DNA of 61,101 nt, filler included, from Circinaria calcarea (taxonomy: Eukaryota), in NCBI GenBank assembly GCA_051942165.1. It is 9 parts of 9 records of this genome, joined end to end, with 100 filler letters (N's around TTAATTAATTAA, not from the genome) between each part and the next. Parts side by side here need not be neighbours in the genome. Positions count along the whole stretch, not along the records: positions 13,631 to 20,340 come from JAVECS010001512.1; 8 more parts are not named here. One strand, written 5' to 3'. Shown here piece by piece: positions 562-44,699 of this stretch. The stretch's first letter is position 1. Every line of letters starts with the position of its first letter. The notes below the pieces were generated by a model. That model was not told the origin of the DNA and did no database searches. It saw only the letters and a program-made list of their open reading frames with translations. The position numbers and the translations under genes are program-made.

Positions 562-2391
562 TTAAGCAGCAACCATCGGCCCCCTCTCCCTCCTCCCTTG
601 ATTGAAGAATCGGCTCAACCTCTTCCGGAGGCCTAGTTTCTTCTCGGCGGGTTTGGAAATCTCCAGGACTGTAACCGCAGATTCTTTCTGTCTTTGTTCC
701 AGATCTGGCCTGACCACTTCCACCTTCGGCTCCGATATCGGTTCCTCCATGACAATCTCAAACTTCTCAATGTCCACACTGCGGGTGCTTATAGACGCAT
801 TTTGGCTATGGCTGTGCATGTGCCGGGGAGGAGGGAGTTGAGAATTGCGAGGACTTTGAGGAGGACTGATAGCACCAAGTCTCATCTTTTCATCTACCAA
901 CATCTGTAATTCGCGCTGACGTCTATTGATGGCCGAATCCGTCCTTCGAAGACCGTCAGTGTCGATCCGCGTACCCGGTATTTGAGAGGAGCGAGCATCG
1001 TTTTTCGTTCCCGGCATATTGGACGATCTACCTGGGCGCATGAGTTGTGAAATGTGCATTGGCTGGGGTTGCTTTTCCTTGTATTGATCTAGTCCCGGTA
1101 AGGGAGGAAGAGAGCGGTTAAGATCTAGTCCACTAGGAGTAGAAGGCTGATCTTCTTCTTCCGGTTTGACGCTTCGGAAAGAGTTCCAGCTTCCCTTTCG
1201 ACGGAGAGCACTGCCGGCTCGCCACCAACTCCCACCTCTGTTCGTGCAGCCATTACGGCTGCTGGAGCGGGAGGCGCCGCCTTCGGAGCGCGTGGATCTC
1301 ATGCTGTCCGAGCTTGCACGTGGACGAATGTACTCTCTGATGCTGGTTGTGATACTGCCTGCTCTGCTCTGCGGGCGTTCTATAGGTTCCGACTGAAGTT
1401 GATGCAAGGATTGTTGACTAGGTGCACGATAGAGATGGTTGGACGTAAACGAATTCCCGCGACGTCGGGCGAGTTCTTGTGCCATCCATGCTTTTGCTTG
1501 CGCATCGGCAATCGAAGCGGCTTGGTTGTCACGGAGGACTTGCTCGGAAACGCGCTGGTTGCACGAGGATGCACTTTTTCGATCAGCCGGGGTAAGGGCG
1601 AGGGAAGTGAGGCCGGTCGAGGGGTGTCGGTCGGCAAAGGTGGTATTTGTACGAGTGGTAGATGTGCTCGTACCGGTGGACGGACCAGTGTAGTCAATAC
1701 AGGCAGCAGCAGAGGTTTTTGGTCGAGTGTCGAGTGTCAGTCGGATCTTTGTGAGTGGATCATCTGACGGTGGTTGCCGAGGGCGACTATGACCTGACGT
1801 AGCGGTATGTGTTGGCTCCAAAGGTTCGAACGTGGTGAGCTTGTTGCTGTGAATTTCCCTCTTCGAGCTCGCCTTATAGGCCGCAGCCGGATTGAGAGGT
1901 ACGCGTTTATGTGACGGGAGTTCTGCATTCGGAGCTTCACGTTGACTTCTCCGAACATAGAGCGAGCTGTCTGGCTCTGGTCTCTGACCGTGGCCTTTAC
2001 CCGAGTCCTTCTGGGCGCTCCGTTCCTCAATGTACTTTTGTAACCTTTCATGATGATTCAATAAGTCGGTATATTCCGACCCTGAGGGAGCCGATTCCTG
2101 TGCAATCTTTGCGCACGAGAGTCGTAGATCCGATTCTTGACGAGACGATAGGCGAGGACGCTCGATTATAAACGACACTGGACTGAAGGGTGGAGAGTCA
2201 AGTGGTTGATGAAGCTCCTCCGACTTTGGGCTGGATGATGCCACCTTCTGGTTGATTGTTAGCACTGAGGAGAATTGCACAATGAGCTGCAATGGCCTGA
2301 GAAGTGCTCTTGGATGTCATGATCGCAATGCCAAAGCTACTCGAGCTCTACTTACAATCGGGGCAAGCTTAAAGGAGAATTTCCGCTTCAT
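562..2391 (-). CDS. Hypothetical fungal protein, Ser/Arg/Pro-rich and probably disordered; 2 exons (2391-2356, 2247-562)
   Basis: 576-aa ORF. A short first exon MKRKFSFKLAPI ends at a GTAAGT donor (2355); a GCTAAC branch site and CAG acceptor (2250-2248) join it in frame to KVASSSPK. Confidence 0.75.
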
Positions 2392-5300
2392 CTTGACCAA
2401 CGACGACGATGCAAGAAACCCGATCAAACCGCACTGGACTCTATGACCGGTCCTGTGAGTAGTGTTGGTAGAGGATGGAAGTATTAAGCCACGATCTGAT
2501 GGGTGAGAGCGTGACAGCAGCACGGGCAGTCCAAAGGTAAAAGGGCACGGTGTTGATCCAGGTGGAACAGAGAAAAACGCCTCGGGGCTGGGCTTTTGGT
2601 GTTGGGAGCCAGTCGGTGATTTTCCTACACACCCAACGACTTTCCACTTCTGGCAGCAGCTTCCACCGAGTCAAGACTCCAATCAATGGCTGATCTGGTG
2701 CGAATCCTTCGACGGACGGCGGCGCGAATACGGAAACCTCCAACGACAGTATATAGGTCTCGAGTGAAAGGAGAGGTGGTGGCGCGAGACCAACGAAGAA
2801 ATGTAGGTACGCAGCACTGCACATAAACCCGTTCTACTTGCAGTCGGCGTCGGCCTCTCGATGCCACCAATCGACTGACCGGGTCCTCCACGTCTCCAAA
2901 GGAAAAGGCGGCATGGGCATGGGCGTGGGCATGGCTTATGCTGGTAAGCGTCTTTCTCTTGAATCTCAAGCCCATGATCATCTCCGTCCGTTTGTCCCCG
3001 TTCAAAGCGCATCCTATCAGTCGAGCAGGGGTTGGTCACATGCACACCTACACTTGTGGTCCCCTCCCGGCCTTCATGAGGTCTTCGATCGCCCACCACC
3101 TCCACCTGCACCACTCTCCCATACATAAACTACCACACTACCACACCATCACTATCCCGACTACGTTCCATTCCCATAAAGACTTCCCCACCCTCCACCT
3201 CCGAGTTCCATGACAAGTCGATCTGTTGCGAAAAAAAGCAAAAACCCTCCGGTTCACGGAGAGTCGCGAAAGAAAAGGCGCTACCCCTTTCCCTTTCTTT
3301 CCATTTGCGCCCGCCCGCGTTCCAGACCGGCGCAGATTGGCCGTCTAAGACTTCATCAACTACAGTAGGTAAGGTACACCCTCCAAGCGCAAGGAACGAA
3401 CTACCGACTCGTCCCATTTACCCCAGACGCTCCTCTCCTCCCTTGAAGATCCCAGATTTACTTTTGGCCCCTGCATCCCGGTCCACGAAAGCAAAGCATT
3501 GACGACGTTTTCCTTCCGCTGGACCCTCCTGCATCTCTCGGCCCCCTTCCCCTTCGCCAATCAGCAGTCCTGTTGCCCGTCTAATCCTAGATCGCCTTTT
3601 CCCGACTGCACAGAATATGCTTCGGTGGCTGTGGGGGAGAGACTGAGGAAAGAAAGTAGTACCGACTCTATCGCACATCACCGACTGGGGCCTCGAAGTC
3701 AATCACAGTGGCGGCCCCTGCGCCGAGGGGAAGATGGGGTAAATTGGACGGGCGTTGATCTTACCCAAGCAATTTGCTTAATGACTCGCCCGGCCCGAAC
3801 AGTTCACCGGCGATTTGGTTCCGTCACCCTGATTGGCTCTCCTTCTCAACACCCTCAATTTCCCAGTCACAAAGTGGAAGTTTTCAGCGGTGTCTGCTCT
3901 GCAAAATGTATGGCTTTAGAATTCTGCGAATTTCTTGCCGTACCTGCCGTACCTACCGTGAAATGCGGGCTAGCCGTTGGACTTTGCCCTAACGTCGCGT
4001 GGGAGATTACTTGCTGCCAGTTGGACGCTGTGCATGACGCGAGCGTGCTTCTTCGATGCATACTGGTAGTCGCACTACTTTCTTTCGATGCAGATCTTAT
4101 GGGGTGGGTGATAAATCGTGGACGCTAAGCTAGTCGTCGGTACCACGGTCGGTCTTCCGTATCAGATGGCGCATACAATACTGCTGGAATCTTACTTTCA
4201 AGCCTGTACCTTTGAATAGCACAAATGAAAAGACAGGATCGGGGCCGCCACCATGTCTGCTTCGATGGTCTACTTCCTGCTGTTGTCTTGAAGGCCTGCA
4301 GTATTGGAATGGAGGGAGCTTGCTCTGTACAGATAAGCCATCCCAACGTCTCGTACATAAACCGGGTCTGTATGTATCGGATGGTGAAGCCTAGATGCGT
4401 TGGGGGAATTACGCATTCACGAAGAAGCGCTTCGACCTTTTGCTATGATTGTCTCGCTTCTACTGTCCATTCATCTTTCGCAGGCTGTTCAACTGCCTTG
4501 TCCCTGAAGGAAAGAAGTCATGCACCATGCAGTCTGAATTTTTTGCTTGCTGGCCCTGCACGCTGCCGTAGCTAGGCTAGCCGTGGCGGCTGGCATCTGT
4601 TTATTTCCACAGCCACTGGTTGGCTCATCTGGATTAGCCGCAGGAAAGACCGTTCCTTTTGCCGTTCGCTTTTGGGATTTGGCATGTTCCCGACCGAAAT
4701 TCCCAAAGACACGTAAACTATTCAAAGAGAGATTCTCCAGTGTGAATCTGTCATTCAGTGGAGAGAATCAGTGAAGTGCTTGGACATCAGGTCAAAGGTT
4801 CGGATTCATTGATAGACCAGACTGATGCATCTCCAGGCATACAGCTTTTTATGATAAAGACGTTTCTCTTATCCAAAGCCACTGCTCCATAATCTGGTTC
4901 ATGCGGAGGATTATCCCGGGGGTTTAATGATCTATCAGTACCCGTTACAGCCTGATCCAAGCCGTTTCTACGATAACCCCATCTCCGGTTCTCGAACCAC
5001 TGCCACAATCTTTCTTGGCAGTGTTGCTGACCTTGTAAAGAGTATCTGTGCGCCGCATGCGAATAGCAGTGAAGCACATCCCCATCCAGAACTGCTCTAC
5101 AAATTCGGTGTATGGCAAGTTTTTGGGAAGTCCTGCTAGTATTCACTCTTTATTGGTTGGCAGACGGCTTGTTACGTAGGGAATGATCAGCGAATATACC
5201 TGCTCGGCAATCTGACGACGGTTTAGGTCCAAACAGATACCGTTTGAAGTTTGATCTCACCATGCCCGACGGCTGTTCCTAAACAATTGGCTCAGCCGCC

Positions 5301-6064: not shown

Positions 6065-6293
6065 ATGCGTGTATCTCCCAGTCTCTATACTTCTCAGGTA
6101 CGTCGGAATAGTCTTCTTGGACGCCTCGGACAATTGTCCCGCCCTTGTGCTACACGCTGGAGATATTGGGCTAAGCTGATTCTTCCGCCAATAGGATTAT
6201 ATTTCTGGTAAACTCTTCTCACGTTATGTGGGTGACGCTCTGCAACTCACGCCTGCCTACGCAGATCATTTGTGGAAAGCTTCAATAATTTGA
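6065..6293 (+). promoter_or_regulatory. AAP: Arginine attenuator peptide uORF (MRVSPSLYTSQDYISDHLWKASII, 24 aa), 3 exons: 6065-6097, 6195-6207, 6265-6293
   Basis: Splicing GTACGT..TAG and GTAAAC..CAG gives the TSQDYISDHLWK motif of fungal AAPs (N. crassa FTSQDYLSDHLWR, yeast YTCQDYISDHIWK); it ends 63 nt before the CPA1 ATG. Confidence 0.95.
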
Positions 6294-6719: not shown

Positions 6720-6819
6720 NNNNNNNNNNNNNNNNNNNNNNNNNNNNNNNNNNNNNNNNNNNNTTAATTAATTAANNNNNNNNNNNNNNNNNNNNNNNNN
6801 NNNNNNNNNNNNNNNNNNN
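6720..6819. other. Artificial contig linker
   Basis: 44 N + TTAATTAATTAA (stops in all six frames) + 44 N. Confidence 0.98.
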
Positions 6820-7672: not shown

Positions 7673-8519
7673 TGTTGTGTGGTCAAGGTTCCTTGCGTTT
7701 TCCTATGCTAAAACTACTATCTTTTATATACATTACCCCCCCGGACCTCAGTCCCTCCGTGGAAGTCGCGGGGGGACCCCGTGATAAGTCCCCCCCCCCC
7801 TGTTTTTTAAAAAGGGGCGATGTCCTCAGCGGTCAACGGGTTCGTCGTTGAATACCATTTTGTTGCCGTGGAACCCTGGGACTGTCAACCATTGATTGGC
7901 GAAACCTATTGCCCACCACTCGACATCCTTGCCATCTCATCCGCTGATGTCGACACCGTTCTTGTCCAGTACCGCTTGTCCGGTCTTTCCGCTCATAACC
8001 TCTCTTCTGGCTTCCACCATCCGAGTATACAAGGCTCTATTCCTCTCGATCTTGGCCTGACCTTTCCTCATGCTATTCTAGGTAAGGGGAAAACCGTTCA
8101 AGAGAAAGGCTAAAGGGAGTTGAGTATAGTTAAAAGAGAGTTTCAAAAAGGAGCGTCTGAAAAACAAAAGCAATGGCTCAGCCGCTCTGTCACGAAAAAG
8201 GGCGATGGGTAATAGAAGAGAAGGTGGAAAATTCCAGGATTAAAATAGGCAATAGATGGTGGGGCCACCCCTGGTGAGTTGAAATAGTGGCTTGTGCTTT
8301 GGCGCCGACTGTTGTTTTATAATGGTGCGCTTGATTATGGTGCGCGATAACGGGGCTTTACCGCCTGGTTTCCACGGGCATTTTGGTGTGGAAAAAGAAA
8401 ATGGTTGGATGAAATGCTATTATTGTTGTGTGGTCAAGGTTCCTTGCATTCCCCTATGCTAAAATTATTATCTTTTATATATATAACCCCCCCGGATCTC
8501 GCGGGGGGACCACTTGACA
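7673..8519 (-). mobile_element. Small non-autonomous LTR retroelement (TRIM-like), 847 bp
   Basis: Direct repeats at 7673-7786 and 8424-8519; outer ends TGT..ACA; identical 5-bp flanks CTAAA (7668-7672, 8520-8524); minus-strand polypurine tract (C-run ~7790-7800) next to the left LTR; no gag/pol ORF. Confidence 0.85.
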
Positions 8520-9259
8520 CTAAATTCCTAATATCTATTAATGAAAATTTCAGTTAGCAGGTAACAAAAGACTAACCTGATCCTATATAATTAAATACCG
8601 TTTTAGGCCAATTATTGTTGCGGGTACCTAAAATGAATGAATCAGTATCTTCTATATGATTAAAGGCACCTGAGAGCTGTCTAACCTTGTATAGAAGTAC
8701 GGAAATAGTTTATGCAGCTAATCCATTGCCCGAGTCCAGTGTGGGATTAGTAGTAGGCGATGGCAATATAAAGAGCGTCTATATCGTTACATGTCCAATT
8801 TGGAATGGTCGCCTTGGTTAAGGCCCACTCTGGGGCCCAGCCTCGACGAGCAGGCTGTGAGCGATTTATTGCAATGTGAGCAAGATTTGCTGACTCCGCA
8901 AAATTGGTTCCGTCTTCGCCAGATTTAACCATGCAGCTGATTAACTTAGTTCCCAGCGTTGGTGTAATATGACGAAGGTATATTATAATATCGAATTGAA
9001 AAAGAAACACCAAGTGACGCCTAACCGGCATAGCTGGATATCGATGTACGAGAAAGATACCTCATATATACTGTAAGGGCGCTGCAATCCTTGGGGCCTA
9101 TTGAGGAATATGATAAGTCCCGATTGGTAATAGCACGGTTACATAGGGTGTAGTTGAACTGTTGCCCTAGGCTCAATATAAAAGGAGTATATTGAACTCG
9201 TTATGGTTCTTTAAGCATACTATTCTAAAGAGCGGGAATAGCCTGCTATATATATTTCC

Positions 9260-10337: not shown

Positions 10338-11829
10338 CTATTTGCTCATAGCGGCCTCGCTGGCAGTCAAACTTCCCACAACAGCAAATACATAGAGCGG
10401 ACATAGAGCGTAAGCAAGCTGTTATATGTAGTTAGTGCTGTATCTAGCTAATTCCGGCCCTCGCGAAATAGATGCTTGCAAATAAGATGATAGATCACTT
10501 ACAGTCAAAAACTTGGCGATACTCATCTTCTCCCCCTCATTACTCCCGTTAACGTCGGCCAACGCCGTCAATTTCATAGCCGGCGGACCAGTAGGCATCA
10601 GCATCATTGTAAACCAAAGTATCGGGTCCTGGGAAAGAATATTCGTTTTCGACACGAGGCCGTAGATGATGGCAATCGAAACCACCGGCCATAGAATAAA
10701 CCTGATCACAAGCACAAACAGTGTAGGCTTCCAAGGTACACTTCCGCTCTCCTCGCCCTTTTTCATTTTGCGGAGCGAACTGCTTAACTTGACACCGACG
10801 ACGACGACTTGTAACGCTGCGAAGAGTTCACCGATATTCTTGATGGAACTGGTAAGCCAGGCTTTAAAGATACCGCCTTCTTGCTGTGGATTAAAGAATG
10901 CTTTATGTAGGGGAGGGGTAAGACCAATCAGAGCACCAATTAAGGCTCCGATAAGAGGAGCGTTGAGAAATGCGTAGAGGAAATCTAGGACCGAGCGAAG
11001 CCAAGGAGGGAAGCGATCCCAGTAATGTTTCCCACTGGCATATGATTTATGGCCCGCTTGATTGGATTTTCGGACTACAGAGTCGGGCAAGAGCGAGGTC
11101 TCTTCGTCTATAAAGACAGTTTCTTCAGGCGGTTGACCGTTGCCTTGCTCGACGTCTGACCCGTGGTGTTCTGCATTGCCGTCCTCTTGCCCGTTCTCTT
11201 GAGGCTTATTCTTGTCATTGTCTTCCCCTTCATCTGGCGATTCTTCCCCATCCAGTAGTTTCGGGCCCAGGGCGAACGTTAAACTGTTCCCGACCATCGA
11301 GCAGACAAGGAAATAGGACTGCGCGCGTTTGAGGGCGTCAGATTCATTGTCAGAATCGGACATGAGGAGTTTGCCAAGGATACCCGTCGTAGCGAGCGAT
11401 TGAATGAGGAGAAGGGGAAGGGAGGTCGTATTGTTGAAGGATAGAGCTGCCGTGGCCCAGGAGGGAAACTTGAAGAGACGTGTGGCAACGAAACCGAGGA
11501 GCATCGAGAAGAGGGTATAGAACAAGGACCATACTAGAATTTGTCGACAAATTAGCAACTGATCTGACACATTTGAACAGGGCATCCACCCCCGAGGACG
11601 TACCCAGAACCGGGACATATCTACTGGCCGTGTCAAGATGTAGCTCACTCCCAACGTTAGTAATCAACAGTGCAGGCAGGAACAGGCGAACGCATAGTTT
11701 GCTAATATCCTTTGCACTGGATCCTTTGAGAAGGTCGAACTGCGCAGCGATCACGCCGTAGCCAATTGTCAGGAGAACGGATAGAGAGGCTTGAAGAGCC
11801 CCGAGGAAGGATGTCGTGATGGATGACAT
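10338..11829 (-). CDS. Auxin efflux carrier (AEC/Mem_trans) family transporter; exons 11829-11604, 11533-10503, 10418-10338
   Basis: ISKLCVRLFLPALL, FNNTTSLPLLLIQSL, FLNAPLIGA and MLMPTGPPAMKL motifs; two hydrophobic halves around an acidic loop; canonical GT-AG introns. Confidence 0.9.
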
Positions 11830-13530: not shown

Positions 13531-13630
13531 NNNNNNNNNNNNNNNNNNNNNNNNNNNNNNNNNNNNNNNNNNNNTTAATTAATTAANNNNNNNNNNNNNN
13601 NNNNNNNNNNNNNNNNNNNNNNNNNNNNNN
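13531..13630. other. Artificial contig linker
   Basis: N-run with central TTAATTAATTAA. Confidence 0.98.
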
Positions 13631-16351: not shown

Positions 16352-17632
16352 CTACTCCATTTGTATAATCAACTCTCCGCTGGAGCCGTACCATGCAGGC
16401 CCCATTCCCTTTATTCTTTTTCCCACACCTAAAAACAAAAGGAGATAAGTATGCGCTACCACTTCCCCCCAACAGTAAACTCTCACTACCTCCTCGCTGC
16501 CTCCACCACTGCTTTCCAGACTTTCCTCGGCGGTGCTCTCGTCCTCTTCATTTCTATGCAGAAGGTATCGCTCACACCAAAGCCAACTCGATTCGCCTTT
16601 CCCAACGAACTGTATTAAGAAATCCCAGAATTTCTTCCGGAGAAACATGTCCCATTGCTTGGGTATGCAGATACGCCAAAAGCCTCGCTCATTGGTACAT
16701 GGTGGCCGAAAAATGTGCAAGGGTCGAAAGAACCTGGAAAGCGGGAGCTTTTGGACAATAGCGAGAAGGGAGGGAATGGTGGCGGTGGTGAAAGGTTGGA
16801 GAGAGGTGGGAGGAGGAGATGGTATTATTCTTTGAATCGGAAGGTCCGAGTCCTCTGGAAAGACAGAAGGTCGAGGAGAGGGTGATGGAGTTTCGGTACA
16901 TGCAAGGTTAGGAGACGATGGAGGGTCTTGAATGGACTGCGCTGCATCCTGAGACGAAGACGGTAGTGTCGATTGCGAAGGCGCAAGCAGTCGGGGGCGT
17001 TTTGTCAATGGCGATGATTCTACCTCATGTGGTGATGATGACGAACCAAGTAGCGAGCGCTTTAGACTAGACGTCCATGGCTGCGAATCGGGAATGACAC
17101 TTGGCGGTGTTTCCCAAGAGTCAGATAATGACCGACGTTGTTGACTTGGCAGAAGTGGTTTTGCTGCTGCACAAGTCGGCGCACTTGTTGGTCGAACAGT
17201 GCCAGGGGTCCGATTAACATGAATGACTGACAATTTCTTGGGTCCATCATGGAAATTGCCAGCCCATGCCGCACCGGCTGCTTGCAGAGTCGCGTTTGCT
17301 GTTGTGTTTGCACCCTGTAACCCGACTGGATTTGAGGCATCATCAAAACTGGTACCGTCGGACTCATTTCCGACAACCCGGTCACTTTGCTTGCTCTGGA
17401 GAACAGAAGGGGGTCTACTCCGAATTGCTCGCGCATTGCTGGACGACCGTAACAGAGTCCTCACTGGCCTCGATGGTCCTACAGAGGAATCCCCTTGATC
17501 CGTTACTGTATCATGTCTCTTGAAGGTCTCAAAATCGAGCAAAGCCTGGGCCTGCCTTCGGTACCTGGCATCATCCCGTGCACTGCTTGGCGCTGATATA
17601 TGCACGAGAATCTCGATCGGGTGCACCATCAT
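16352..17632 (-). CDS. Hypothetical protein (426 aa): ordered N- and C-termini, Ser/Pro-rich middle
   Basis: Long ORF; EILVHISAPSSARDDARYR start and ERGFW...RVYCWGEVVAHTYLLLF C-terminal block look like a conserved Pezizomycotina family. Confidence 0.8.
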   Translation of the reverse strand: MMVHPIEILVHISAPSSARDDARYRRQAQALLDFETFKRHDTVTDQGDSSVGPSRPVRTLLRSSSNARAIRSRPPSVLQSKQSDRVVGNESDGTSFDDASNPVGLQGANTTANATLQAAGAAWAGNFHDGPKKLSVIHVNRTPGTVRPTSAPTCAAAKPLLPSQQRRSLSDSWETPPSVIPDSQPWTSSLKRSLLGSSSSPHEVESSPLTKRPRLLAPSQSTLPSSSQDAAQSIQDPPSSPNLACTETPSPSPRPSVFPEDSDLPIQRIIPSPPPTSLQPFTTATIPSLLAIVQKLPLSRFFRPLHIFRPPCTNERGFWRICIPKQWDMFLRKKFWDFLIQFVGKGESSWLWCERYLLHRNEEDESTAEESLESSGGGSEEVVRVYCWGEVVAHTYLLLFLGVGKRIKGMGPAWYGSSGELIIQME

Positions 17633-18276
17633 ACTCCCTCATCCTCCAAGCATGATAAGATGCAGGCATTGTGGCGAGCAAACACAGCGATGATGCGACA
17701 GTCTTTGAATGTGTTGATGCTCTATTCATTCTGGATCAAAGAACACAAGCCATGTTGATCCTTAGCGTGGAGCTTACGTGATTTGCAACCCGTCTCTGTT
17801 CTGTCTCTGTGCAAAACTCGAGCAACTGGACTCCAGCATACCCGAGTGACTCCGTCTAATGGCGTTGGGACCTGTTTTAACTTCTACTCCTAGAGGACGT
17901 TCTCTGTGCAAATCCAGTCCTTCGAGTCTGTCAAAGATGAAGCCAATCCCCATGATCTGGTACATGTTGTAATAGACATGGAATCACCTCCATGTCCTAT
18001 CTCATTTCACCTGTGGGCAATGGCGTTTAAGAGAGCAGTGTATTGATGGTAGCTGAGCGTTGCTCAGCTAGCTACATATCATCGTGTCTCCAGATCTGCA
18101 AAAAGCTAATTTGAGTTGCTGCTCTCTACAATTGTAGATCAACCATGCCGCACGTTCCACCCAGGTTCCCTTCAAGGCGTTTGCAAACGTTGCCCTTCGT
18201 CCCTAGAGGCTGAACTGTCGACGGTGGTAGATGCTGGGTTCTGCTATGCCTTCTCGGAAAGACTCTTGTGCTTCCA

Positions 18277-18534
18277 CTAGACACTGTCTTCCGCCCATTC
18301 CGCTGCAGAGACCTCATCAACACCAGCAGAGCGTTTGAATGGAGCTCCATTGCAAGGATAAACGTGAGTATTTTGGCAATATTGGTTGTCGATTGCCACA
18401 TCGCGCTTCGTTGGAACTGCGTCGATGTTAACATACTACTCTTCTATGATCTGGATTGCTTAGTCCATGCCAACGGGCAGCCCAATGACCAGGCTGAGAG
18501 CAGAGAGCACGAGGAAAGCAGTGACTCCCTTCAT
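18277..18534 (-). CDS. Small secreted Kex2-processed peptide precursor (67 aa), candidate RiPP precursor; exons 18534-18471 and 18416-18277
   Basis: Signal peptide MKGVTAFLVLSALSLVIGLP; a 54-nt GC-AG intron (GCATGG..GTTAAC..GCAG) yields VVPTKR-DVAIDNQYCQNTHVYPCNGAPF-KR-SAGVDEVSAAEWAEDSV*; TATAAGA ~170 nt upstream. Absent from the ORF track. Confidence 0.75.
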
Positions 18535-19442
18535 CTTGATAGAGGTCTAGAGGGAATCTGTCATGGACTTTGTGTGGTGGAGGGGTGTTGGGCTTTGTCC
18601 AGGTAGGCAATTGATTGACTGGGTAGCTGAAGGGAGAGGTTGACGAAGGTCAAGACAGAGCTGAGGAAGAAAGGTTACTATGAGGGGGGAAGTTCGGTGT
18701 TCTTATAGGTATTACCGTAGGGGCTGGGAGTGTGAGCAGTCCATCACGGATCCGGCTGTGAGAAGACGCTAGGCTGAGATATCGGCACGGCTCTCCCTCC
18801 CATATCACGTTCAGGTCACGGTCCTTGGTGATGCGGTCATCCCCATGGCATCCCGAGTCGGGTAAGGGTCTTCAACGGGTCTGTTCATTTCGCCTAAACA
18901 CATCACTTTATGAAGCTGGGTCGACTGTCGCTTCTACTTTCTTCTTTTTAGATTGGATTGGTTCAGATGGCCAAGCCATTCTTGCTGAAAAGCAATCACC
19001 GAATGTGCTCTTTGAGGCTATGCTGATCTGAGTGACGCAGCTGAGGATAGTCGTGACGTTAGCCAAAGAGATGCTTCTTGGTAATCAAGGCTTCGTCACT
19101 CTTCTGGCTTGGAAAAGTGAGAGCTCGTTATCGGCTGTAGCTGTGAATGCTGGTCAGAAAGATCCAGGCAGAGGGAACTTTAGGCTTGGAGCTCGGACTC
19201 CCTGTCTGATCAATGCTGGAGCATCTCTACACAATTTGGAACAGATCCCTCACAATGATATACAGCCTAGTGCACTGCTTTATTCTTAAGGGCAAGTGGT
19301 TTCAACACCACTGTCGCCACTCTCACCGTACTATTTCACGCTCTTTCTTCTTTGACCTCCGGGGCTGAACGAACCCCACGCGTTTTTTGGTTCCTGTTGT
19401 TGGATTCTTTCAACCGTATCATCATGCTGACTGCACTTCGAC

Positions 19443-20340
19443 ATGAATCTCGACGAGAATGATGTTGATATACCGATGGATCCCGAGCATCCCAAGGACG
19501 CCCTCTTCTCCAAGCCGCGACATGTACGAGGTCTCAGTCTGACTCGAGGTCGTCAGAGTCGAGTCCACGTTACCCTGCACATCTTCGTGCTCTACTCCAT
19601 TATTGCTGGTCTCGTCGTTGTTGGTCTGACCTTGCTTAACATGCCCGATACCTGTCACGATCCAAGTCAAGGCATCTACTGTAAGTCCTGCCTTGATAGA
19701 AAGAGACCCTGAAGGGAGAGGTCATTGACCGCCGTTGGACCATGATGATGGTTTCTCTTGCTTTTACAACACAACCTCTGCGCATATGCTCATCACCAAC
19801 TTGATAGCGCCGGCATCGGATGCAGTTGCGTACCGTAATCACGTCTTTCGAGAGAATTTCGTTTCCAAAGGGCCGTACATGGGTCGTCCAGATGGGATTC
19901 CGGACGAAGGTGTTCCAAGCGACCAAACTGATGCTCTTTGGGAGGATCTATATCAGTGTGTGTTACCCAATAATTTCTCCATTGCATACTACAATCCTAC
20001 TAATCAAGAACCCTCAGTTGGTGTATCTCAGATCCCCTACGATCAAGCTCGTCAGCTACCGAATGCAACAGAACGCATTCCCGGCACCACGGAACAATAC
20101 GTGATCGAGCTCGATGTCTTTCATCAATTGCATTGCCTCAATGCCATAAGAAAGACATTGTACCCGGAAAGGTATTGGGACACGTATGATGATTACTATA
20201 TCAAGGACGGCTCACCCCCAGGAAGAGGTCAAAGGAACTATACGAGTACGGACGCTAAACACTACGGTAATCAGGATACCCGCTTCCTACCCATATAAGA
20301 ACCTCTTTCAGTCCCTCTGGCAAGGCTGCCGGACACATGC
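19443..20340 (+). CDS. DUF3328/UstYa-like oxidase, truncated by contig end; exons 19443-19680, 19808-19957, 20018-20266
   Basis: One N-terminal TM helix, IYSPA, DALWEDL and YVIELDVFHQLHCLNAIRK (HxxHC). The last visible exon ends KHY at a GT donor, where the second HxxHC motif would be expected. Confidence 0.92.
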
Positions 20341-20440
20341 NNNNNNNNNNNNNNNNNNNNNNNNNNNNNNNNNNNNNNNNNNNNTTAATTAATTAANNNN
20401 NNNNNNNNNNNNNNNNNNNNNNNNNNNNNNNNNNNNNNNN
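20341..20440. other. Artificial contig linker
   Basis: N-run with central TTAATTAATTAA. Confidence 0.98.
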
Positions 20441-24221: not shown

Positions 24222-27149
24222 ATGATGGACTTGGCAAATGCTCACCCGGAGTCTCCAATGGAGCCGGACGATGCATATCCGTGCAAAGGTTGCGGCGAGG
24301 TACTGCACACGCCTCTTAAGCTCCCTCGTACCAACTATTTGGCCTGATCGCTTGGCTAACTCCAGTGTATCGATGTAGATTCTCGAAGAAGGAAAGGCTT
24401 TCGAGCTGGGTAGGTCCAGCGCAAGCCTATTGTCGTCCTTACAATACATGCACTGACCCAATCACAGCTAACAATCGATGGCACATCGATTGCTTTCGAT
24501 GCAACACCTGTGGCACACTTCTCGATTCCGACGCCAACCTGCTCCTACTTGGTGACGGCTCTCTGATTTGCAATAATTGCACATACAGCTGCAGCGCCTG
24601 TGGAAATAAAATCGAAGATCTCGCCATCCTAACTGGGGATCAAGCCTTCTGTGCGAGCTGCTTCCGCTGTCGGAGTTGTAAGAAAAAGATAGAGAATCTT
24701 CGATATGCAAGAACGTCCCAGGGAATCTTCTGCATGGAGTGTCATGAAGGGTTGATGGCAAGGCGTCGGAAGAAGTCTGGAAAAGGTTCATCGAGTCGGC
24801 ATAAACAATCGAGTAACAGCAACACGATGCTTCTAGATAAATCCCTACCATCTTTACCCCCCAGCGCGGTCTTAACAAGTGCCTTTTCGCCTGACCACGA
24901 AACGCCTCCATCAGACACATACTCTGATACGCCCACCGAGCTTCCTGCACAATCTTTGAAAAGGCCGGGAAACCACCGCACCGATGTACTCTCTACAAAA
25001 CGGGAGCGTTCGCCTGCTCCTTCAGAGGATGGCCGAAAAGGTAGAGTCTAGGTCAAGGTATTCTGCCTAGATGCGACGAGCTAATAACTATTACAGATAC
25101 CCTCATGTTACCATCCACAACCTACAGAAATGATAGGCACTCTCACGTATCACAACGCTCGGATTTGTTGGGAAATGGAGACGATTTTATACCCATGGCC
25201 CTTGACCTTCAAATAGCCCCTGGACCGTCTCCCATGACGAGGCATCAACAATTTGATATGCAGGACGCAAACAAATCACACACGGGAGACGTAAAGGTCC
25301 ACTCGCGCGATTACTTCAATACCAAGATTCCTCATTCGTCCTCTCGTAAGGCTTCTCAGGATCATGACATGACCCAAGGATCATCGCGTCCGGTCTCAAG
25401 ACCGGGGTCTCACGGTGGTTCTCAGCCAAGCAGCCCACATATTGCCTACCAAGAGAAAGGACGGGAGCCCACTTCAGAAATTATTGACACCATTCGGAAA
25501 CGTAACGAACAAGGTATCGCCAACAGTCTAGGTGGCATAGCCGCCTTTGATAAAGCTAATGAAACGCCTGGAAATGGGCATAATAACAATGACAAATTCA
25601 AGCTCCAGGAAGTGCCTAAACGCAGAAGGTCAGGGGCGTCCGCTAGGAACTCGAGATCCGATATGCCATCTACAGGTCTAGACACGTCGGTTGTGAATCC
25701 TCCGTCGAACTCTGCCCCGGCCTCTGTAAGTACACAACTGAAAGAACAGCATGTTGTCGTATCATCAGCTTCACCCCGCTCAGCGCAATCAAGTGACACC
25801 TATTCTCCTTCTCCCCGCTCGCCTAAGGACTCAAGGCCTCAAATGAATGGATCAAAAGACTCATCCATGCCACATTCATCACCACTGACGACGCAATTAC
25901 AGCACGTACCACTGCGAGGAGACTCCCTGCAGAAGGCATCTTCCAAACACTCAATGGTTCCCAGAAAAGAGATTACCGGCACCAAGTTATCTTACAGCTC
26001 CTTACCACTTGACACCGGGCTGGAGTTTGCAATATCTACTCCGCCTTCAACGACGAAAAGTCAAGGCTCTCCTACAGCCTCGATGCATCTCAATGGGAAT
26101 AAACCCAACCCAAAGCTCTTAGACTCACCCGTTCCTAGACGTAGTTCTGAAGTGATGCAACCTCCGCCACGAGCAAAGGATCGGCCCGTAGTGAGTACTG
26201 GTTCTACCACCGAGTCCTTCATTTCGCCACGCGCACCTCCACACCCGCCTTTGGAAATGCCACCCAGGGCAAGGAATGAATCCGTCAGCACGATACAGTC
26301 CGAATCTACTAGAAACGGCGACCTGCCCGCGTCGCCTTCGCTGCCTCGCTACAGCGCCGGAGGGGAATTTTCCATGGATGAGGATATGGCTCGTATCCTG
26401 GGGAATGAGGATGGCGATCAAGCATCCTTCCTACGGCGTGTCTCCAACTCGGTTCGACATGCAAGAAGTTATAGCGATAGAGGGACCCGTCTCTCGAAGG
26501 AGCATAAATGGCCCAAGTCGCCGCTCAACGGGAGCAACACCTTTCCACGTGAAGTCAGCAGTCCTGCTTCCTCGCCCGAAACACGAGAGGAATTAATGTG
26601 GTTTAAAAACGAACTTCGAAGGGAACGTCAAAAGACCGCCGAGAAAGATCAGAAGGTTGCCGAGCTAGAGGCAGCGTTAGATGGGAGAACCACCATTAAG
26701 CAGATGAACTACGAACTGAATGAAAAAAGATCCACGATGATAGTCTTGGATACGCAAAAAGAAATTGTGGTTCGAGAGCTCGAAGTTCTGACCGAGCATA
26801 TTGCGGCGTCGAAGAAAAGCAGGGACCCTTTGGATCTAAGTCAAATGAGAAACGTCGTCCTCCGTGAGTTTGGAGAATCTTTAGAGAAGCTGAAATCTAC
26901 TTTTGCCCCCCAGATCATGGATCTCACGGAAAAGAGGAACGATCTCATCGATGAGGTATCGCGACTTACCCAGCTGAGGGAGCAGAGCGTTCAGGAATTC
27001 GAGCAATTATCCGTGAAGAATGCGCAGCTTGCTGAACTCAACAACCAATTAGTTCATCAGATACAAGCACTGTACAAAGCAAATGCGAACAACACGTTGG
27101 ACGCAGTCAAACCACCGCCTCAAGGGCTTGGGATATACACGCAACCTAC
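24222..27149 (+). CDS. RGA1: LIM-domain Rho GTPase-activating protein (Rga1/Rga2-like), truncated before the GAP domain
   Basis: Exons 24222-24299, 24379-24409, 24468-25040, 25097-end give YPCKGCGEILEEGKAFELANNRWHIDCFRCNTC and a second LIM (CSACGNKIEDLAILTGDQAFC), then a coiled-coil region. Confidence 0.9.
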
Positions 27150-34599: not shown

Positions 34600-37316
34600 T
34601 CAATGCCCGATGCCGCCTGCGACCCATTGCCCGTAATTTGGATCCCCCGGGGGTGGGAAGAAGCCTCCGTCCGGCTGCTGGCCAGGCAAGGGCTGGGGCG
34701 CCGGAGCGGCCCCCTCCACCGCTCCTTGCGCGACTTGGTGCTCTACCGCCGCCGCCCTCCGGGCTGTCTGCTGCCTCTGCTGTCGGTAATATACCAGGAA
34801 GACGAGGGCTCCAGCCAAGGCGATTATGATTAGGCTTTCCAAGATCCCTTCGTCGATTTCGTCGTAAAAGTCATCGCCTCCAGGCATAGGATCATACATG
34901 GACGATTCGGGCTGGTCGTCGGCGTCGGCGGAGTGATAGTAAGGATGGTCGTCCCGGAAGAATTTGGACATCCATTCGCCCCAGGAGAGAATCTGTTTGG
35001 GTTCTGCATCTTCAGTTAGTATCGCACATAGCAAACAGTTAATGCATCAACTCACTAGGCTCTGATTGAATGGATTTAACTTTTCCATTCGTAAGCGTGT
35101 TCCAAGCACTCCGCATTCGCAGCTTCAGCAGACCCAACTTGACGGGCAAGTACGCTTCCTGATTCGTCTCCAAAGCCATGTCATAGAATCTTTTGGCCAA
35201 ATGGAAGTCTTGCTCCACCCCAATACCGTTCTCATGCATCCAACCCAGGTTCCACATTGCCTGTGCACTCTGTTGCATCTCAGCAGCGGTCTGGTAGCAT
35301 GTAGCGGCTTTCTCCATGTCGGCCTCTATCCCATATCCACCAAGGTAGTAATCCCCCATCTTAACCATCGAATCGATGTTATGTTGCTTGGCCGATCGGG
35401 TCCAGTATATCAATGACAAAAAGGCGTTACGCAAAAATGAAGGCTGCTTTTTCCATGGTAGTAGCGAATCCAATGGCAAAATCGATTTGTGCTCATCGAG
35501 CATATAGGCTACATTTGCCTGGGCGTACTCGTATCCCTGCTCGGCGGCCATCATGTATACAACCAGGGCAGTTTCTTTGTCCCCATTCTCATACGCTCTA
35601 TTAGCCTCTTCGAATGATGAATGTATGGCTTCGGCCTTCTCCACAACGACCTTGTAGTAAGCTGTTGCAAGCCCACAAGATCGGTCACGGCCTATGCCGT
35701 TGTTGGTCAGTTCGGCTAGGTAGTAAAACGCTTCGATTTGTCCGTGGCGTAGAGCAAGCTCGAAGAATCGGATTGCGGCCGGTATATCGCCTTGATCCAA
35801 GAAGAGTTTACCGAGCTGGACTTGGGCTGCAGGCCAATCCTGCTCTGCAGCCGCTTTGAAGTAATTCGCGGCAGCTACCGGATCTTTGCTAACTCCATAT
35901 CCATGAAGATACATCAGGCCTAATTCATATTGACACGAAGCATCGCCATTAGCGAGGCCACGCTTGAACCAAGTTAGAGCCTTTTCAAAGCTTGGCTCTG
36001 TAGCCTCTCCCCTCAGAAACATACGCCCAATGTATGCTGCAGCTTTGGAGGCGGTCTTTCCAATTTCATCGCCATCATCTGACAGCACCGAACCATCCTT
36101 AGCCCAATACTTGCGTGCGACAATCATAAAGTATGCTCTGGCCGTCTTTAAATTCCTCTTCATCGTCCGAGATCCGTCATAATGTAGTCGGCCGAGGCTG
36201 AACGTTGCCTTCAAGTCACCTTTCCTCGACATGAGATCTAGATATTCCAAGACGTCGTCAAGTGCCGCATTCTGGTCAGAGTTTGCCGGGGCTTTGTTGG
36301 CATGGACTCCAGAGCTGACAACGCTGGCACCTTCCCCATAGACACCACCCTCCTCATCCGCAATTCGATATGCGTCTCGGGGAAGCGCCAATCCGCCTGG
36401 TGGACCCGACCTGGCATATGCAATCGCTTTGTCGGCAACCTTCTTATAGTGTACGGCGGCTTCGTTACAATTCCTTGGGGTCCCGATCCCTGCGTGATGG
36501 CGGAAAGCGATTGTCATCTCAGACCTGATGTTCCCACCACGCGCTGCGAATGTATGATACATGAGTGCCTTTGCCTGATCTCTCTCAACAGCACCACCGA
36601 TTCCTGTTGCGTACATGAATCCGACCATATGCTGCGCAGAACTGTTGCCGTACAGTGATGAGAGTTCGTCATATCTCCGAAAAGCTTCCTTGTAATCTCG
36701 AGGGTGTGTGAAATTGCCGTAGAAGTTCATTTCGGCGAGTAGAAAAATAGCATCCGCATTACTTTCCCTCGCGGCTCCCTCCAGAAGCTTCACGGCTCTT
36801 GCCAATGGCTTGTTAAGTTTGCGCTCTTTGGGTTGTGTGTCGAGGGAGTCTTCTTGCTTGGGACCGTTCATGAAAAGTAAGACAAAGGCCTCCTTAGCGT
36901 AGTATAGCGATGTTCCCATGAATCCAGAACTGTTATCAAGACGCGAAAGTCGACTTCGTGGGGTTTCGAGACCGTGCAGTATTGAAAGTGCTTCCTGGAC
37001 ATCCAGTACTCCTTTTACAGCATGAGCTTCTGTGTAGAGTGAAGGGTTGTATACGCCTACCTTGGCTTCCATTACCATTGCCTCTTCGATACCACCGTTG
37101 ATTCTCCTTGGAAACAGGTTTGGTGATGGCACCTCGGACAGACGCAAGATCGATGCGTGGATTCGCGGTATCTGCAGACTCTTGCTGCTTCATCCATACC
37201 GACGGGAAAGAGACTAATAGTAACACTAGGCCAAGTCATTAGCATCTATGGAACATTCTGTCGCCCCGCAACGTACGAAACAGGAACGCCCATGGTGACC
37301 CTGCCGACCGCTTCAT
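34600..37316 (-). CDS. HRD3: ERAD ubiquitin-ligase adaptor Hrd3/SEL1L (Sel1 repeats), 4 exons
   Basis: Many Sel1 repeats (AQHMVGFMYATGIG, AMWNLGWMHENGIGVEQDFHLAKRFYD); signal peptide from spliced start MKRSAGSPWAFLF; C-terminal TM and WVAGGIGH end. Confidence 0.93.
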
Positions 37317-41330: not shown

Positions 41331-43212
41331 ATCTATAAAATGCGTTGAACAAGGTCCCCCGTGCAGCTCAGTTGACCGAGGGTTTCTAGCTCGAGAGGGT
41401 GCCCAGATGCGACACTGAGGTCGGTCTCAGCCGTGTTCCTAACGATCGCAGGGTTTCTCGATTGCTGTGTAAGTTTGCGATGCAAGGTGAGACGGTAAAG
41501 GTCCAGGCCGGGCTTGTTGTAGATCGTAATGGTTGCCACGCGGGATTTCTTGATGGGAGGCTCGAAGAGCTAAAATCCCTTGTGAGATTCTTTTTGACCA
41601 AGATCCTAGTAACGCTCAAATTATACTTCGCGGAAGAAAATTGAAATTTCCGGGTAGAGAGCATATAGGGATGATCTAAGTGGACTTTTCTGCGTTAGGA
41701 AACACTCTTTTATATCGTCGCAATCTGTCACTCCCTACGCAGAGTTCAGTGGATAGATCGATTGTAAATAACTGATATCAATTAACCCTAGGCCTCACGA
41801 CTTCTATCACGTGACACTCCTATTCCTCCTAGAGCATGTGATTTATAACAATTTTATGAATGTTTATGAACTGTCAACACTGCACTTACTAAGCGAGAGC
41901 CGGCGCCATCAAATCATTTTCTGTGCATGGAAATATTCGAGAGAGTTTTATCGTCGAGCTGACCTTAGATAGAGGTCCGGTTGCCGAAAGCTTACCGATA
42001 ACGCTAGCATTTGTAAATCTGTACATGTGGAACATGACTGCGATCCCACAGAAAAACAAGAGGACCAGTGATGCTGAGAGGATCGGTATCAGTAACACCG
42101 AATCACCCAACGCGTGATATGTGGAGGACTGAAAGCATTCTCACATCTCATTGTGACTGACAAGTACTACTTGAAATGTGAAAGTGCCTCTAAGCTGATA
42201 TTTGAAATTGAAGGCGCTCCAAGACAACCTGCAGATATGGGGAGGGTACACACTAGCAAACATAAAGTAGTCTTCAACAAATCTTCAAGACATCGAAGCT
42301 ACACATATGAGCGCTTATTCCGAACTGCAGCAAGATATTGCGCTAGTCGTCTTCTTCGCTCGAAACAATTTTGAAAACTTATAAGACAGAATCAATGGGA
42401 TATGTTTCGCGCAAGCGGTGTTTCAAAACGAAAAGGTATTCAACCAGAAGGGTAAGTGAAATTCCCTTGGCACGCCTTTACTTCACTCGAGACTTAACAG
42501 AACGACTTGAAAACCTCAGCTGTGGCGCCTCGGCGTCAACCATACAGACCATGAGGTTTGCTCTGCACGGAAATCTGTCCAGAATATTCTTCTCCTCCTG
42601 AACGCCAGAACATGCGACAGCCTAGGAGAGCTTCCTCGCCTCTCACTAGCAGAGTCAAAGATGGAGATACGTCGCTAGCCAACCCTCTACGATGCCCTCT
42701 CGAGGCGCAGGGAGAATCGAGGTAATCGAGGGAATAATGCGAATTGCAAGAGAGACGGCTGAGAGGCTCTGGAGGTTATATGAATCCGGACGCTAAACTA
42801 GCTGCGGAGATTTCCCGTCCGCTTAACCCGATTGGGGAAGGTTCTCCCGTGAGTTTCAATGCTCTGTTGTGTAAACGCTCTGGATTCGCTGAGCTGATAT
42901 CTGAAAGCGTTTGACCAGAAAATGCCTTGTCTACGTGCAGGTGTCTGATTTGGCTGTTCTACTCTGAGCTGAGCAGCAGTGGTGAGTTGTGGTAAGATAC
43001 TTGGCTGCTGAAGGGACCACTAATGCGCCTTAGAGATACGGCTCAAGAGTTGCACTGCCGCCTGATTGCTTTGTCCGAGAGACAGCCAGGCAGCAGTACG
43101 GGTCCGTGTAGAATCATCCTCTTCCTCCTGGTCCATCACCTTAATATCGTACCATTACTCTACTTTACCATCAAATCACTTTATCGAAGCAGGTAAAGTC
43201 TGTCCAACAATC

Positions 43213-44022
43213 ATGAGCTCCTCTACCCCTTCTGGCACTGATCCGATACAATCCCTCGTTCGCAACCTAGCCGGTCTTTCATTGACCCTTATCGACGACT
43301 CTTCTCTGCCGCAGTTCAACTCTCTCTTCAAGAACCACCTGGAAACCCGCTTTAGCGGATACCGAGGCGGCGCGGTCTACGAACCTTCCCATCATCCTTC
43401 GGGAGGTTTCATCAGCTCTGTGGCTTTTGAGGATTACAATAAAAACCACTACCTCGTCAAAACACCCCATGGAACGAAGTATCAGAACATGAAACAGGCG
43501 AACGGTGCGGCTTCTAAAGTGGCTTATGAGATGCTCAAGGCTGGGCAGAAACCTCCGCTCGCCAGCTCGGTAGTGCAGACTGGGGAGATTATCTCTACCA
43601 CTACGGGGGATGACTATCGTATCCAGAAACTGGAAATCATCATCAAGCACGTCATTCAGGACCGCGAGCTCGCCCTCCGCGCGCTGAGGCACTCATCCGT
43701 CGGGCTCAACAACCATGACGCCTTAGCTTTCCTCGGCGACGCCATCATTGGCTATTTGATGGCCCTGGAAGCCTTCACCACCGCCCCGAATGCGACCGTG
43801 CAAGACCTACACTACACTCGGAGTCGACTGGTTGAAAACGACGAGTTTCAGCGTATTGCACAAGAGATCGGGTTGGCAGAATTGCTCGAGGTTGGCGGTG
43901 GGACCAACGGGCCGATGACGGGTAAGAAGATGGTCGCGGACATGTTTGAAGCCGTCATTGCAGTGCTCTGGTTGGAAGGCGGCGAGGAAGCCGTGCTCAG
44001 GTTCTGGCGCAGCTGCCACTGA
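43213..44022 (+). CDS. Intronless RNase III-domain protein (269 aa) with N-terminal dsRBD-like domain
   Basis: ALRHSS, HDALAFLGDAII (RNase III signature), RSRLVEN and KMVADMFEAVIAVLWLEGG; the N-terminal half fits a dsRBD pattern (FNSLF..VYE..GFISSV..NMKQANGAASKVAYEML). Confidence 0.88.
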   Translation: MSSSTPSGTDPIQSLVRNLAGLSLTLIDDSSLPQFNSLFKNHLETRFSGYRGGAVYEPSHHPSGGFISSVAFEDYNKNHYLVKTPHGTKYQNMKQANGAASKVAYEMLKAGQKPPLASSVVQTGEIISTTTGDDYRIQKLEIIIKHVIQDRELALRALRHSSVGLNNHDALAFLGDAIIGYLMALEAFTTAPNATVQDLHYTRSRLVENDEFQRIAQEIGLAELLEVGGGTNGPMTGKKMVADMFEAVIAVLWLEGGEEAVLRFWRSCH

Positions 44023-44173: not shown

Positions 44174-44699
44174 TTGTTACGAAGCCTCAGGCTTCCATTC
44201 AAACGGAAAGGTGGAATCTACGGTTCGGAAGACTGCGGTTTGTTGAGACGGTTTTTATGAGAACAGCAATGGCAAACTCAATACGCTCATTATTTAGTTA
44301 CTAGTAGATCAGAGTACTAGAGAATTTTAGTTTTGCTGTCCTGCGAACATTATCGATTTCTGGATAGAATAAGATACACTCACTAACTTCACGATCCAGT
44401 GTCAGCTTTTCTCTGATATCCCACTGTGCTGTCATTGCATACATACTATTGCCGGCCAACTCTCTTCCTGTGATCGGTATGCATGACGGTATCTCAACTC
44501 AGTCCCGTAGTTACCCGCCGAGCGGGTGGAATCCTCCTTTTAGTCCACCCTAAACTTCTAGTATAGATATCGGACCTCCACAGTCGTAAACTTATAAGAC
44601 ACCACAAATCAAAACCTATACTCCGATATTGTTGCTTACTCCGTAAAGCATCTTTAGCTTTACTAGTACCTCGCATTACTTCTTTATCCATGAAAGGTG

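Follow-up and report, generated by a model that had tools for sequence, protein, structure and literature searches.

Dikaritins such as ustiloxin, asperipin-2a and phomopsin are fungal RiPPs, i.e. peptides made by the ribosome and altered after translation, for which Kex2-processed precursors and oxidation by UstYa/DUF3328 enzymes are described in the available parts of two papers (PMC12048977, PMC7329392). According to the accessible text of one of these, DUF3328 genes are enriched near genes for the repeat-defined precursors known as KEPs, where they occur in 22% of 7878 cases (Umemura 2020, PMC7329392). The other, the one systematic lichen study, reports in its accessible text the RiPP clans R1 and R2, which have UstY homologues and no identifiable precursor, together with signal-peptide/Kex2 genes without repeats, and it raises a precursor with a 'single core peptide' as one possibility (PMC12048977). 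UstYa-dependent fungal peptides include antimitotic toxins and drug leads, and are mined today via repeated cores. Here we describe a 61,101-base stretch of DNA from Circinaria calcarea (the window, by which we mean the whole of that stretch), in which a small gene for a candidate secreted-peptide precursor without repeats is transcribed divergently from a UstYa/DUF3328 gene. Comparisons with related loci support the pairing of the two genes, and the fuller reading, in which an unrepeated Kex2-processed precursor and the divergent UstYa form a two-gene dikaritin-like RiPP module, appears to us, judged from sequence, evenly poised between right and wrong.

The window is composed of nine contigs of ~6.7 kb with artificial N44-TTAATTAATTAA-N44 linkers between them, so that no feature links across a linker; both genes lie on one contig (13631-20340), in agreement with the original prediction. 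The UstYa open reading frame (ORF) is 98% identical to the NCBI protein P0002 ('MAG: hypothetical protein Q9187_005986 [Circinaria calcarea]', from a 6,710-nt contig), which indicates that the contig comes from the metagenome-assembled genome of a lichen-forming fungus. Every element that had been proposed for the 67-residue, two-exon, minus-strand precursor (signal peptide, KR, 22-mer, KR and an acidic, Trp-containing tail) was found in its place, and the features of the two genes and of the region between them are as follows.

18471..18534, minus strand: precursor exon 1, with the ATG at 18534, encoding the putative signal peptide MKGVTAFLVLSALSLVIGLPV and 1 nt of the next codon.
18417..18470, minus strand: proposed intron of 54 nt, GC-AG, with donor GCATGG, a TTAAC branch-like site and an ACGCAG acceptor.
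18277..18416, minus strand: precursor exon 2, ending in the TAG stop (18277-18279) and encoding (V)PT, KR, DVAIDNQYCQNTHVYPCNGAPF, KR and SAGVDEVSAAEWAEDSV.
18403..18408, minus strand: first KR, a Kex2-type dibasic site.
18337..18402, minus strand: KR-flanked 22-mer DVAIDNQYCQNTHVYPCNGAPF, with 2 Cys, 2 Tyr and 1 His, lineage-specific.
18331..18336, minus strand: second KR, a dibasic site, invariant in the window and in the two relatives P0037 and L007 (see below).
18280..18330, minus strand: acidic, Trp-containing C-terminal unit SAGVDEVSAAEWAEDSV, a conserved unit, VD.VS..EW.
18535..19442, no strand assigned: shared upstream region of 908 nt between the divergent genes, a putative promoter region.
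18702-18707, minus strand: TATAAG, ~170 nt upstream of the peptide-gene ATG.
19443..19680, plus strand: UstYa exon 1, encoding a cytosolic N-terminus and the single membrane anchor VHVTLHIFVLYSIIAGLVVVGLTLL (19563-19637).
19681-19807, plus strand: UstYa intron 1, GTAAGT...GATAG.
19808..19957, plus strand: UstYa exon 2.
19958-20017, plus strand: UstYa intron 2, 60 nt, in frame.
20018..20266, plus strand: UstYa exon 3, ending ...TSTDAKHY at the conserved phase-1 donor GTAATC (20267).
20122-20136, plus strand: first HxxHC motif, HQLHC, in UstYa exon 3.
20267..20340, plus strand: start of UstYa intron 3 (74 nt), then the contig end.

The N-terminus of the small protein was called a signal peptide by a heuristic, namely MK and then 17 uncharged residues of hydrophobic character, and its best 10-residue hydrophobic window reaches a Kyte-Doolittle value of 2.83. 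Behind it stand two KR-bounded units of 22 and 17 residues, the former with its Cys pair seven residues apart, which are dissimilar to each other, so that the gene lacks the several similar units by which KEPs are recognized. There are no tandem repeats and only one copy per unit; such a gene would be missed by repeat-based mining, as had been anticipated, since that method is defined by repeats in the accessible description (Umemura 2020, PMC7329392). Some 20-40 nt ahead of the peptide-gene ATG there is also a five-codon upstream ORF (ATG ACA GAT TCC CTC TAG; 18555-18572, minus strand).

Read without splicing, the minus-strand ATG at 18534 opens MKGVTAFLVLSALSLVIGLPVGMD and then meets a stop. 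One frame contains both the signal-peptide and the KR exon, with two stops in between, and beyond the second stop this frame resumes as YVNIDAVPTKR-DVAIDNQYCQNTHVYPCNGAPF-KR-SAGVDEVSAAEWAEDSV and ends at the TAG. The KR frame can be reached with GT-AG introns only through weak donors, i.e. GTTGGC (39- or 69-nt intron) or GTCATT (54 or 84 nt); the 69-nt (GTTGGC) and 84-nt (GTCATT) introns delete the first KR, and the 39-nt intron was rejected as too short and poor in its donor. Joined to the CGCAG acceptor, the strongest at the locus, the GTTGGC donor gives a 58-nt intron that puts exon 2 in a different open frame (ORF 18126-18434).

The existence of this second frame raises the question whether there is a precursor gene here at all, or instead a chance signal-peptide-like start beside a chance open frame, or a true product encoded in ORF 18126-18434. 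Three overlapping frames are open at the gene (the KR frame for 52 codons, the alternative for 105 and the plus strand for 130), the strongest acceptor leads from GTTGGC into the alternative one, the peptide has no Pfam match, and its sequence statistics against the L007 gene are weak. GTTGGC, however, is a poor donor, and codon usage favors the KR frame. In a model trained on 15.5 kb of window ORFs (nine supported by Pfam and two long ones without Pfam domains), exon 2 in the KR frame scores 0.08, at the 46th percentile among 156-nt windows that are truly in frame, a score reached by only 0.6% of stop-free off-frame windows and, outside the training genes, by 11.8% of stop-free windows. For the alternative frame the score is 0.006 (16th percentile; antisense frames lower), its downstream half scores as non-coding, and its product was rejected on this basis. 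Genes of this design are also rare by chance: a window-wide filter for a signal-peptide-like start, an optional intron, at least two KR/RR sites and a length of 40-150 aa on both strands of the 61-kb window (122 kb-strand) returned one candidate with GT donors only and three, the peptide gene among them, when GC donors were allowed. Both the P0037 ORF and the L007 gene, introduced below, use the KR frame with a matching exon-intron layout. We therefore consider a chance ORF unlikely, with a slim prospect of being the explanation, and the small gene probably real.

The plus-strand UstYa gene begins at 19443, 908 nt from ATG to ATG, and its protein matches Pfam PF11807 (E=7.1e-16, 59.2 bits vs a cut-off of 25), which bears out the proposal of a divergent DUF3328 gene ~0.9 kb away. 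All three of its exons in the window are free of stops, and its relative P0046 is 81% identical to it in exon 1. The further proposal of an HxxHC oxidase holds for the first motif, the second not being in the window. Full-length relatives from lichen fungi (Toensbergia P0007, Lobaria P0043) continue ...AKH[YF]-DHCID...MCHGD..., and the second motif, (H)[YF]DHC (HYDHC), is present in seven of the eight relatives of alignment A2, and one relative substitutes the first motif (HQLRC). Because intron 3 of the relatives measures ~100-220 nt (as frame-shifted read-through in P0005 and P0006) and the contig stops after 74 nt, the second HxxHC of the window enzyme most likely lies just beyond the contig end. 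Past the exon-3 donor and a GT..AG stretch of 46 nt come codons for PLARLPDTC, resembling PLPRLEITHTC 30 residues further on in relatives, which if real would mean that the second HxxHC has been deleted; this deletion, suggested by a tblastn extension to PLARLPDTC, was rejected, as the same intron lengths make the resemblance probably a chance one. On the exon structure given here, the deposited NCBI model P0002 (242 aa) is mis-modelled and truncated, since it translates the in-frame intron 2 and has its stop within intron 3.

The pairing of the two genes is best judged at related loci. UstYa alignment A2, scanned against JGI metagenome contigs, yielded 42 loci, near-identical ones being collapsed by identical scan values or matches (by blastn for L006/L007), and 12 of the 42 were kept as having an upstream flank of 2 kb or more before the UstYa match (L002, L004, L007, L008, L013, L018, L021, L023, L029, L033, L035 and L038). 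An automated filter requiring a start like that of a signal peptide, two or more KR/RR sites and 40-150 aa, with a canonical intron optional, found six candidates in five loci within the divergent zone (0.3-2 kb), vs 0.66 expected (Poisson P=7e-5) from the seven candidates in 215 kb-strand outside it. By eye, three more loci (L007, L023 and L029) have such a gene, bringing the count to 8/12; L002, L004 and L038 have no precursor gene in the divergent zone, and L021 has instead a repeat precursor 3.3 kb downstream (ADAYDLRSAWSK[KR]), as does the short-flanked L041 at 1.7 kb downstream (...W.KR). Most partners are Trp-containing repeat precursors, among them clear cases with four copies of FDNPAWWGKKR (L008), four of DILYDNAAGWGKR (L018), and units of DVVDVPVAWGGF (L029) or DWAGH (L023), and Trp is found in every repeat unit of all six repeat-type precursors near related UstYa genes. 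Other partners, those of L035 and L033 (KRDVDGDFIGYKR...), are non-repetitive like the window gene. At L013 (~8400-8871, minus strand) a two-unit partner of a distant UstYa, in a two-intron model drawn by eye, appears to read DCx8CY[LW]K, a Cys pair followed by Tyr, so that the window is not alone in having Cys-pair units next to UstYa. The genes flanking these UstYa-precursor pairs are housekeeping genes (DAHP synthase, RFC, sugar transporter, HET and Ras), which, together with the lack of any other Pfam domain on the window contig, fits a two-gene module. Taken together, the comparison supports the divergent slot before UstYa as a precursor position.

Two further arrangements were seen at these loci. 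At L018:1323-4654 the four-repeat DILYDNAAGWGKR precursor has a UstYa gene on either side, the two being on opposite strands. At L029 (~1700-2560, minus strand) and L023 (~8100-8896, minus strand) each repeat unit (DVVDVPVAWGGF.AREVAK and ..DWAGH.TRDI.., respectively) occupies its own small exon, with short GT-AG introns and without KR, a layout that is unusual beside UstYa genes.

The enrichment in the divergent slot bears on another explanation, according to which the small gene encodes a real secreted, Kex2-processed peptide (of a signalling, pheromone-like, antimicrobial or effector-like kind and perhaps with a loop between its Cys) that UstYa does not modify, the adjacency being due to a shared promoter or to chance. 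The two Cys of the 22-mer, seven residues apart, would suit such a peptide, as would three precedents, each taken from the accessible part of its source: 78% of repeat precursors have no DUF3328 gene nearby (PMC7329392), acalitide is a fungal single-core disulfide RiPP without UstYa (PMC10840396), and the combination of two small exons, a signal peptide, KR and a single copy is the architecture of the Paracoccidioides/Histoplasma alpha-pheromone precursor (PMC3464258). Against this stands the strong enrichment of precursor genes in the divergent slot at related loci, with 6 vs 0.66 expected and 8/12 loci. The pheromone-like variant, which the original prediction had offered as its alternative, fits poorly, as the consensus WCTRPGQGC directly after KR is not matched (the window has YC...PC, no GQ, and seven residues from KR to Tyr) and the segment is not conserved in L007, whose counterpart has no Cys pair. 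Pheromones are conserved across classes. For the alpha-pheromone, the accessible text of PMC3464258 gives identities of 100% to Histoplasma and 77% to A. fumigatus. We grant a peptide independent of UstYa a modest chance.

The closest relative of the peptide came from an exhaustive HMMER search over 1.8 billion representatives, which returned seven matches. One is a true relative, P0037. This unnamed ENA ORF of 76 residues, from a contig of 10,876 nt, stays open in the KR frame for 76 codons and is 74-76% identical to the window peptide, with indels of 6 and 78 nt, both 3n. Four others were rejected after reading (long repeat proteins, by eye bacterial-looking and Ig-like, which owe their scores to multiple weak stretches), and the remaining two, P0041 and P0042, were also set aside as apparently spurious on the hit listing alone. 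P0037 reads ..IDGVYCGNTHVYPCNAAPF-KR-DVDAVSEAEWAGDSVWWKHKDLPAKL-KR-DVDTVSEAEWAGDSVWWKHKSLPEKA: it conserves the 22-mer, and the Trp unit that is single in the window is tandemly duplicated between its KR sites. With lenient gaps, its WW unit scores best against the L008 repeats (2/300 shuffles reach the score), the WW motif at the position of the window TAG being common to P0037 and the L008 repeat unit. A word-index search with the exon-2 peptide gave no match, a weak blank as P0037 was missed too, and a scan of the JGI metagenomes with peptide patterns gave 125 pattern matches, none of them confirmed. The ESM Atlas returned no usable match for P0037.

A similar pair is found in two JGI contigs, L006 and L007, which are 99% identical to each other (blastn) and represent the closest locus with a long match, their UstYa being 49% identical to the window UstYa over residues 1-236. 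In both, a divergent two-exon gene lies ~960 nt upstream of UstYa. Its exon 1 encodes MKVFSVVTLLFAAVAIATPVPI, a signal peptide of 22 codons (21 in the window), and ends G|GTAAGC; its exon 2 encodes (E)TERDVGICSLT-KR-TFDEALKFG-KR-DVDSVSWGEWMDEDMDTDSVVETGSK, in short (E)TERDVGIC...KRDVDSVSWGEW..., and the protein ends 16 residues after EW. Exon 1 of the window gene ends in phase 1 like that of the L007 gene, and the intron, at a matching position, has the canonical donor GTAAGC in L007; an intron common to both supports the GC-AG model. The exon 2 opening T[KE]RDV[AG]I and the KR-(x)VD.VS..EW block are also common to both, while the 22-mer is not conserved, the counterpart region containing a single Cys and nothing similar in sequence. 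Among the divergent zones of the 12 loci, L007 scores best against residues 1-37 of P0037 (0/300 shuffles reach the score); with the whole of P0037, 10/300 shuffles reach it, and hhalign gives P=3e-4. We propose a group of the window gene, P0037 and L007, defined by a signal-peptide exon of 21-22 codons, a phase-1 intron, T[KE]RDV[AG]I and, later, KR followed by VD.VS..EW; the statistical link of the window gene to the L007 gene appears moderate at best. The divergent small gene of L006/L007 still looks intact.

Several observations weigh against a functional two-gene RiPP module in the window. Enumeration of all donor/acceptor pairs showed the GC-AG intron to be obligatory for the 67-residue model, and the contig end cuts the UstYa gene, leaving the second HxxHC and the C-terminal third outside the window. 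The 12 loci behind the Poisson P are not phylogenetically independent. The hhalign result for L007 (P=3e-4) is uncorrected for ~400 target segments, and the Smith-Waterman comparison of the window peptide with the L007 zone is not significant (193/400 shuffles reach the score). In both samples the L006/L007 UstYa carries two in-frame TAA in conserved exons (L007:5654-5678 and 6236-6264); it is a probable pseudogene, and the module may be decaying. The window TAG sits at the first W of the WW motif of P0037, and similarity to P0037 runs ten codons past it, to a stop common to both, with 8/10 residues beyond the window stop identical to the first tail unit of P0037 and 9/10, by eye, to the last, so that the window copy may be truncated. 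Read through intron 1, the UstYa relative P0046 is 17/21 identical to the window, a value equal to the 81% of the exon as a whole; if P0037 comes from a relative as close as P0046, its identity is only what neutral DNA would give, and P0037 may be no better conserved than that. The predicted linkage to DUF3328 in relatives was seen as a divergent precursor at L007 and in 8/12 loci, and was not seen for P0037: among the 48 UstYa fragments listed (34 + 14), none is on a 10,876-nt contig like that of P0037, a weak comparison, since a single relative can have its fragments spread over contigs of unequal length. Finally, the accessible texts note that UstYa/DUF3328 enzymes also act outside RiPP pathways, e.g. 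in cyclochlorotine (PMC12048977), and that a DUF3328 gene is near only 22% of repeat precursors (PMC7329392).

Some of these points would be explained if the window gene were a decaying remnant of a repeat-type (KEP) precursor, with one unit set left, a weakened donor, a premature stop and no functional product. In place of the GT donor of the L007 gene the window has GC, a TAG replaces the Trp of P0037 in a WW motif like that of the L008 repeat core, with similarity continuing to the common stop, and the Trp unit has two copies in P0037 and one in the window; the two in-frame stops in the partner UstYa of L006/L007 imply, moreover, that such modules do decay. GC-AG introns, however, are functional in fungi, by codon usage the KR frame still looks like ordinary coding sequence, and the three UstYa exons present are stop-free. 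The C-terminus also varies in length in L007, with its 16 residues after EW, so that the shorter tail of the window is not necessarily a defect. Decay thus has, in our view, a small chance of being the right account.

If the window pair is the RiPP module that we propose, both genes would be transcribed from the shared 908-nt region, the precursor would enter the endoplasmic reticulum and lose its signal peptide, the membrane-anchored UstYa, with its catalytic domain in the lumen, would oxidise an aromatic residue, and Kex2-type cleavage after both KR would release the 22-mer, perhaps disulfide-closed through its two Cys, and an acidic C-terminal peptide with Trp. Secretion, luminal UstYa oxidation and Kex2 cleavage are here modelled on ustiloxin, asperipin-2a and phomopsin. 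The 22-residue Tyr/Cys segment had been taken as the core, an assignment that is now unsupported because L007 lacks this segment, whereas the Trp unit is conserved, is duplicated in P0037 and fits the Trp of the repeat partners. The comparative data instead favor the Trp unit as the modified core or as a recognition ('follower') sequence, and suggest that in this UstYa clade attention should go to Trp and not to Tyr alone. A broader generalization, which we put forward tentatively and rate as possible rather than probable, is that the UstYa oxidases of lichen and other ascomycetes work in head-to-head two-gene modules whose precursors can do without repeats. In these, VD.VS..EW would be the recognition or modification site, the upstream KR-flanked unit (here the Cys/Tyr 22-mer) would be variable, and a single precursor would give two different peptides. 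If true, such genes would represent the 'missing precursor' type of lichen UstYa clusters, a class that repeat-based mining cannot see.

The other ORFs of the contig that carries the pair have no Pfam domain at 0.1 except one chance-level match, with no tyrosinase, methyltransferase or transporter in the Pfam check of its ORFs, and tblastx of the contig against the 42 UstYa loci found nothing beyond UstYa at 1e-4. About 650 nt downstream of the peptide gene there is a 426-codon Ser/Pro-rich ORF (16352-17632, minus strand) without a Pfam domain, for which the ESM Atlas gives unnamed Ascomycota clusters only (score 0.94) and which has no relative among the 42 UstYa loci. The remaining contigs of the window hold ordinary fungal genes by Pfam, and no second UstYa or additional precursor-like gene was found on them; their Pfam features, and the linkers, are as follows.

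10425-11663: Mem_trans.
24320-25048: LIM.
35042-37189: Sel1 repeats.
43066-44019: RNase III.
44694-45293: thioesterase.
45594-46574: UbiA.
48633-52082: PPR protein.
52621-53832: SRP68.
57328-57723: SET.
6720-6819, 13531-13630, 20341-20440 and five more: linkers, artificial, with stops in all six frames.

Two results are transferable beyond this locus, the Trp theme and a positional rule. A non-repeat precursor type that stands head to head with its oxidase, ~1 kb away, would provide a simple rule of position for finding such genes, and the window pair is directly testable by heterologous expression. In the literature covered, largely at abstract level and outside subscription journals, no characterised UstYa-dependent RiPP with a non-repeat precursor was found, and a new, non-repeat variant of dikaritin-type RiPPs is probable.

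Compared with the dikaritins (ustiloxins, phomopsins, asperipin-2a and victorin), the window pair likewise has a PF11807 gene with HxxHC beside a signal-peptide precursor with KR sites, aromatic residues within the KR-bounded units, and related loci in which the head-to-head layout occurs with true repeat precursors. The minimal cluster of asperipin-2a is a further parallel. Unlike the dikaritins, the window gene has no tandem repeat, long units (22 and 17 residues) and no YxIx-type core; tyrosinase, methyltransferase and transporter genes are not on its contig, and the second HxxHC is not seen in the window. With the KEPs it shares a secretion signal and dibasic sites, but not the repeats by which these are defined in the accessible text of PMC7329392. 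The Paracoccidioides/Histoplasma alpha-pheromone precursor is likewise small, poorly annotated, interrupted by one intron, secreted and the source of one Cys-pair peptide after KR; in the part of its description that is accessible, however, WCTRPGQGC directly follows KR and is conserved between genera, whereas the window has KR-DVAIDNQ-YCQNTHVYPC, with no W or GQ (PMC3464258). The acalitide precursor AcaA (81 aa), compared by description only, resembles the window gene as a fungal single-core precursor of a disulfide-bridged peptide, but its product is cyclised by the peptidase AcaB, and the accessible report mentions no UstYa and no KR logic (PMC10840396). A further comparison is with the lichen clans R1 and R2, in a study whose accessible text has no occurrence of Circinaria (PMC12048977). 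Like these clans, the window has a Lecanoromycete UstYa with HxxHC, here the first motif; the clans are, as far as that text describes them, Parmeliaceae clusters with tyrosinase, methyltransferase or acetyltransferase genes, whereas the window offers a two-gene pair with a candidate precursor family.

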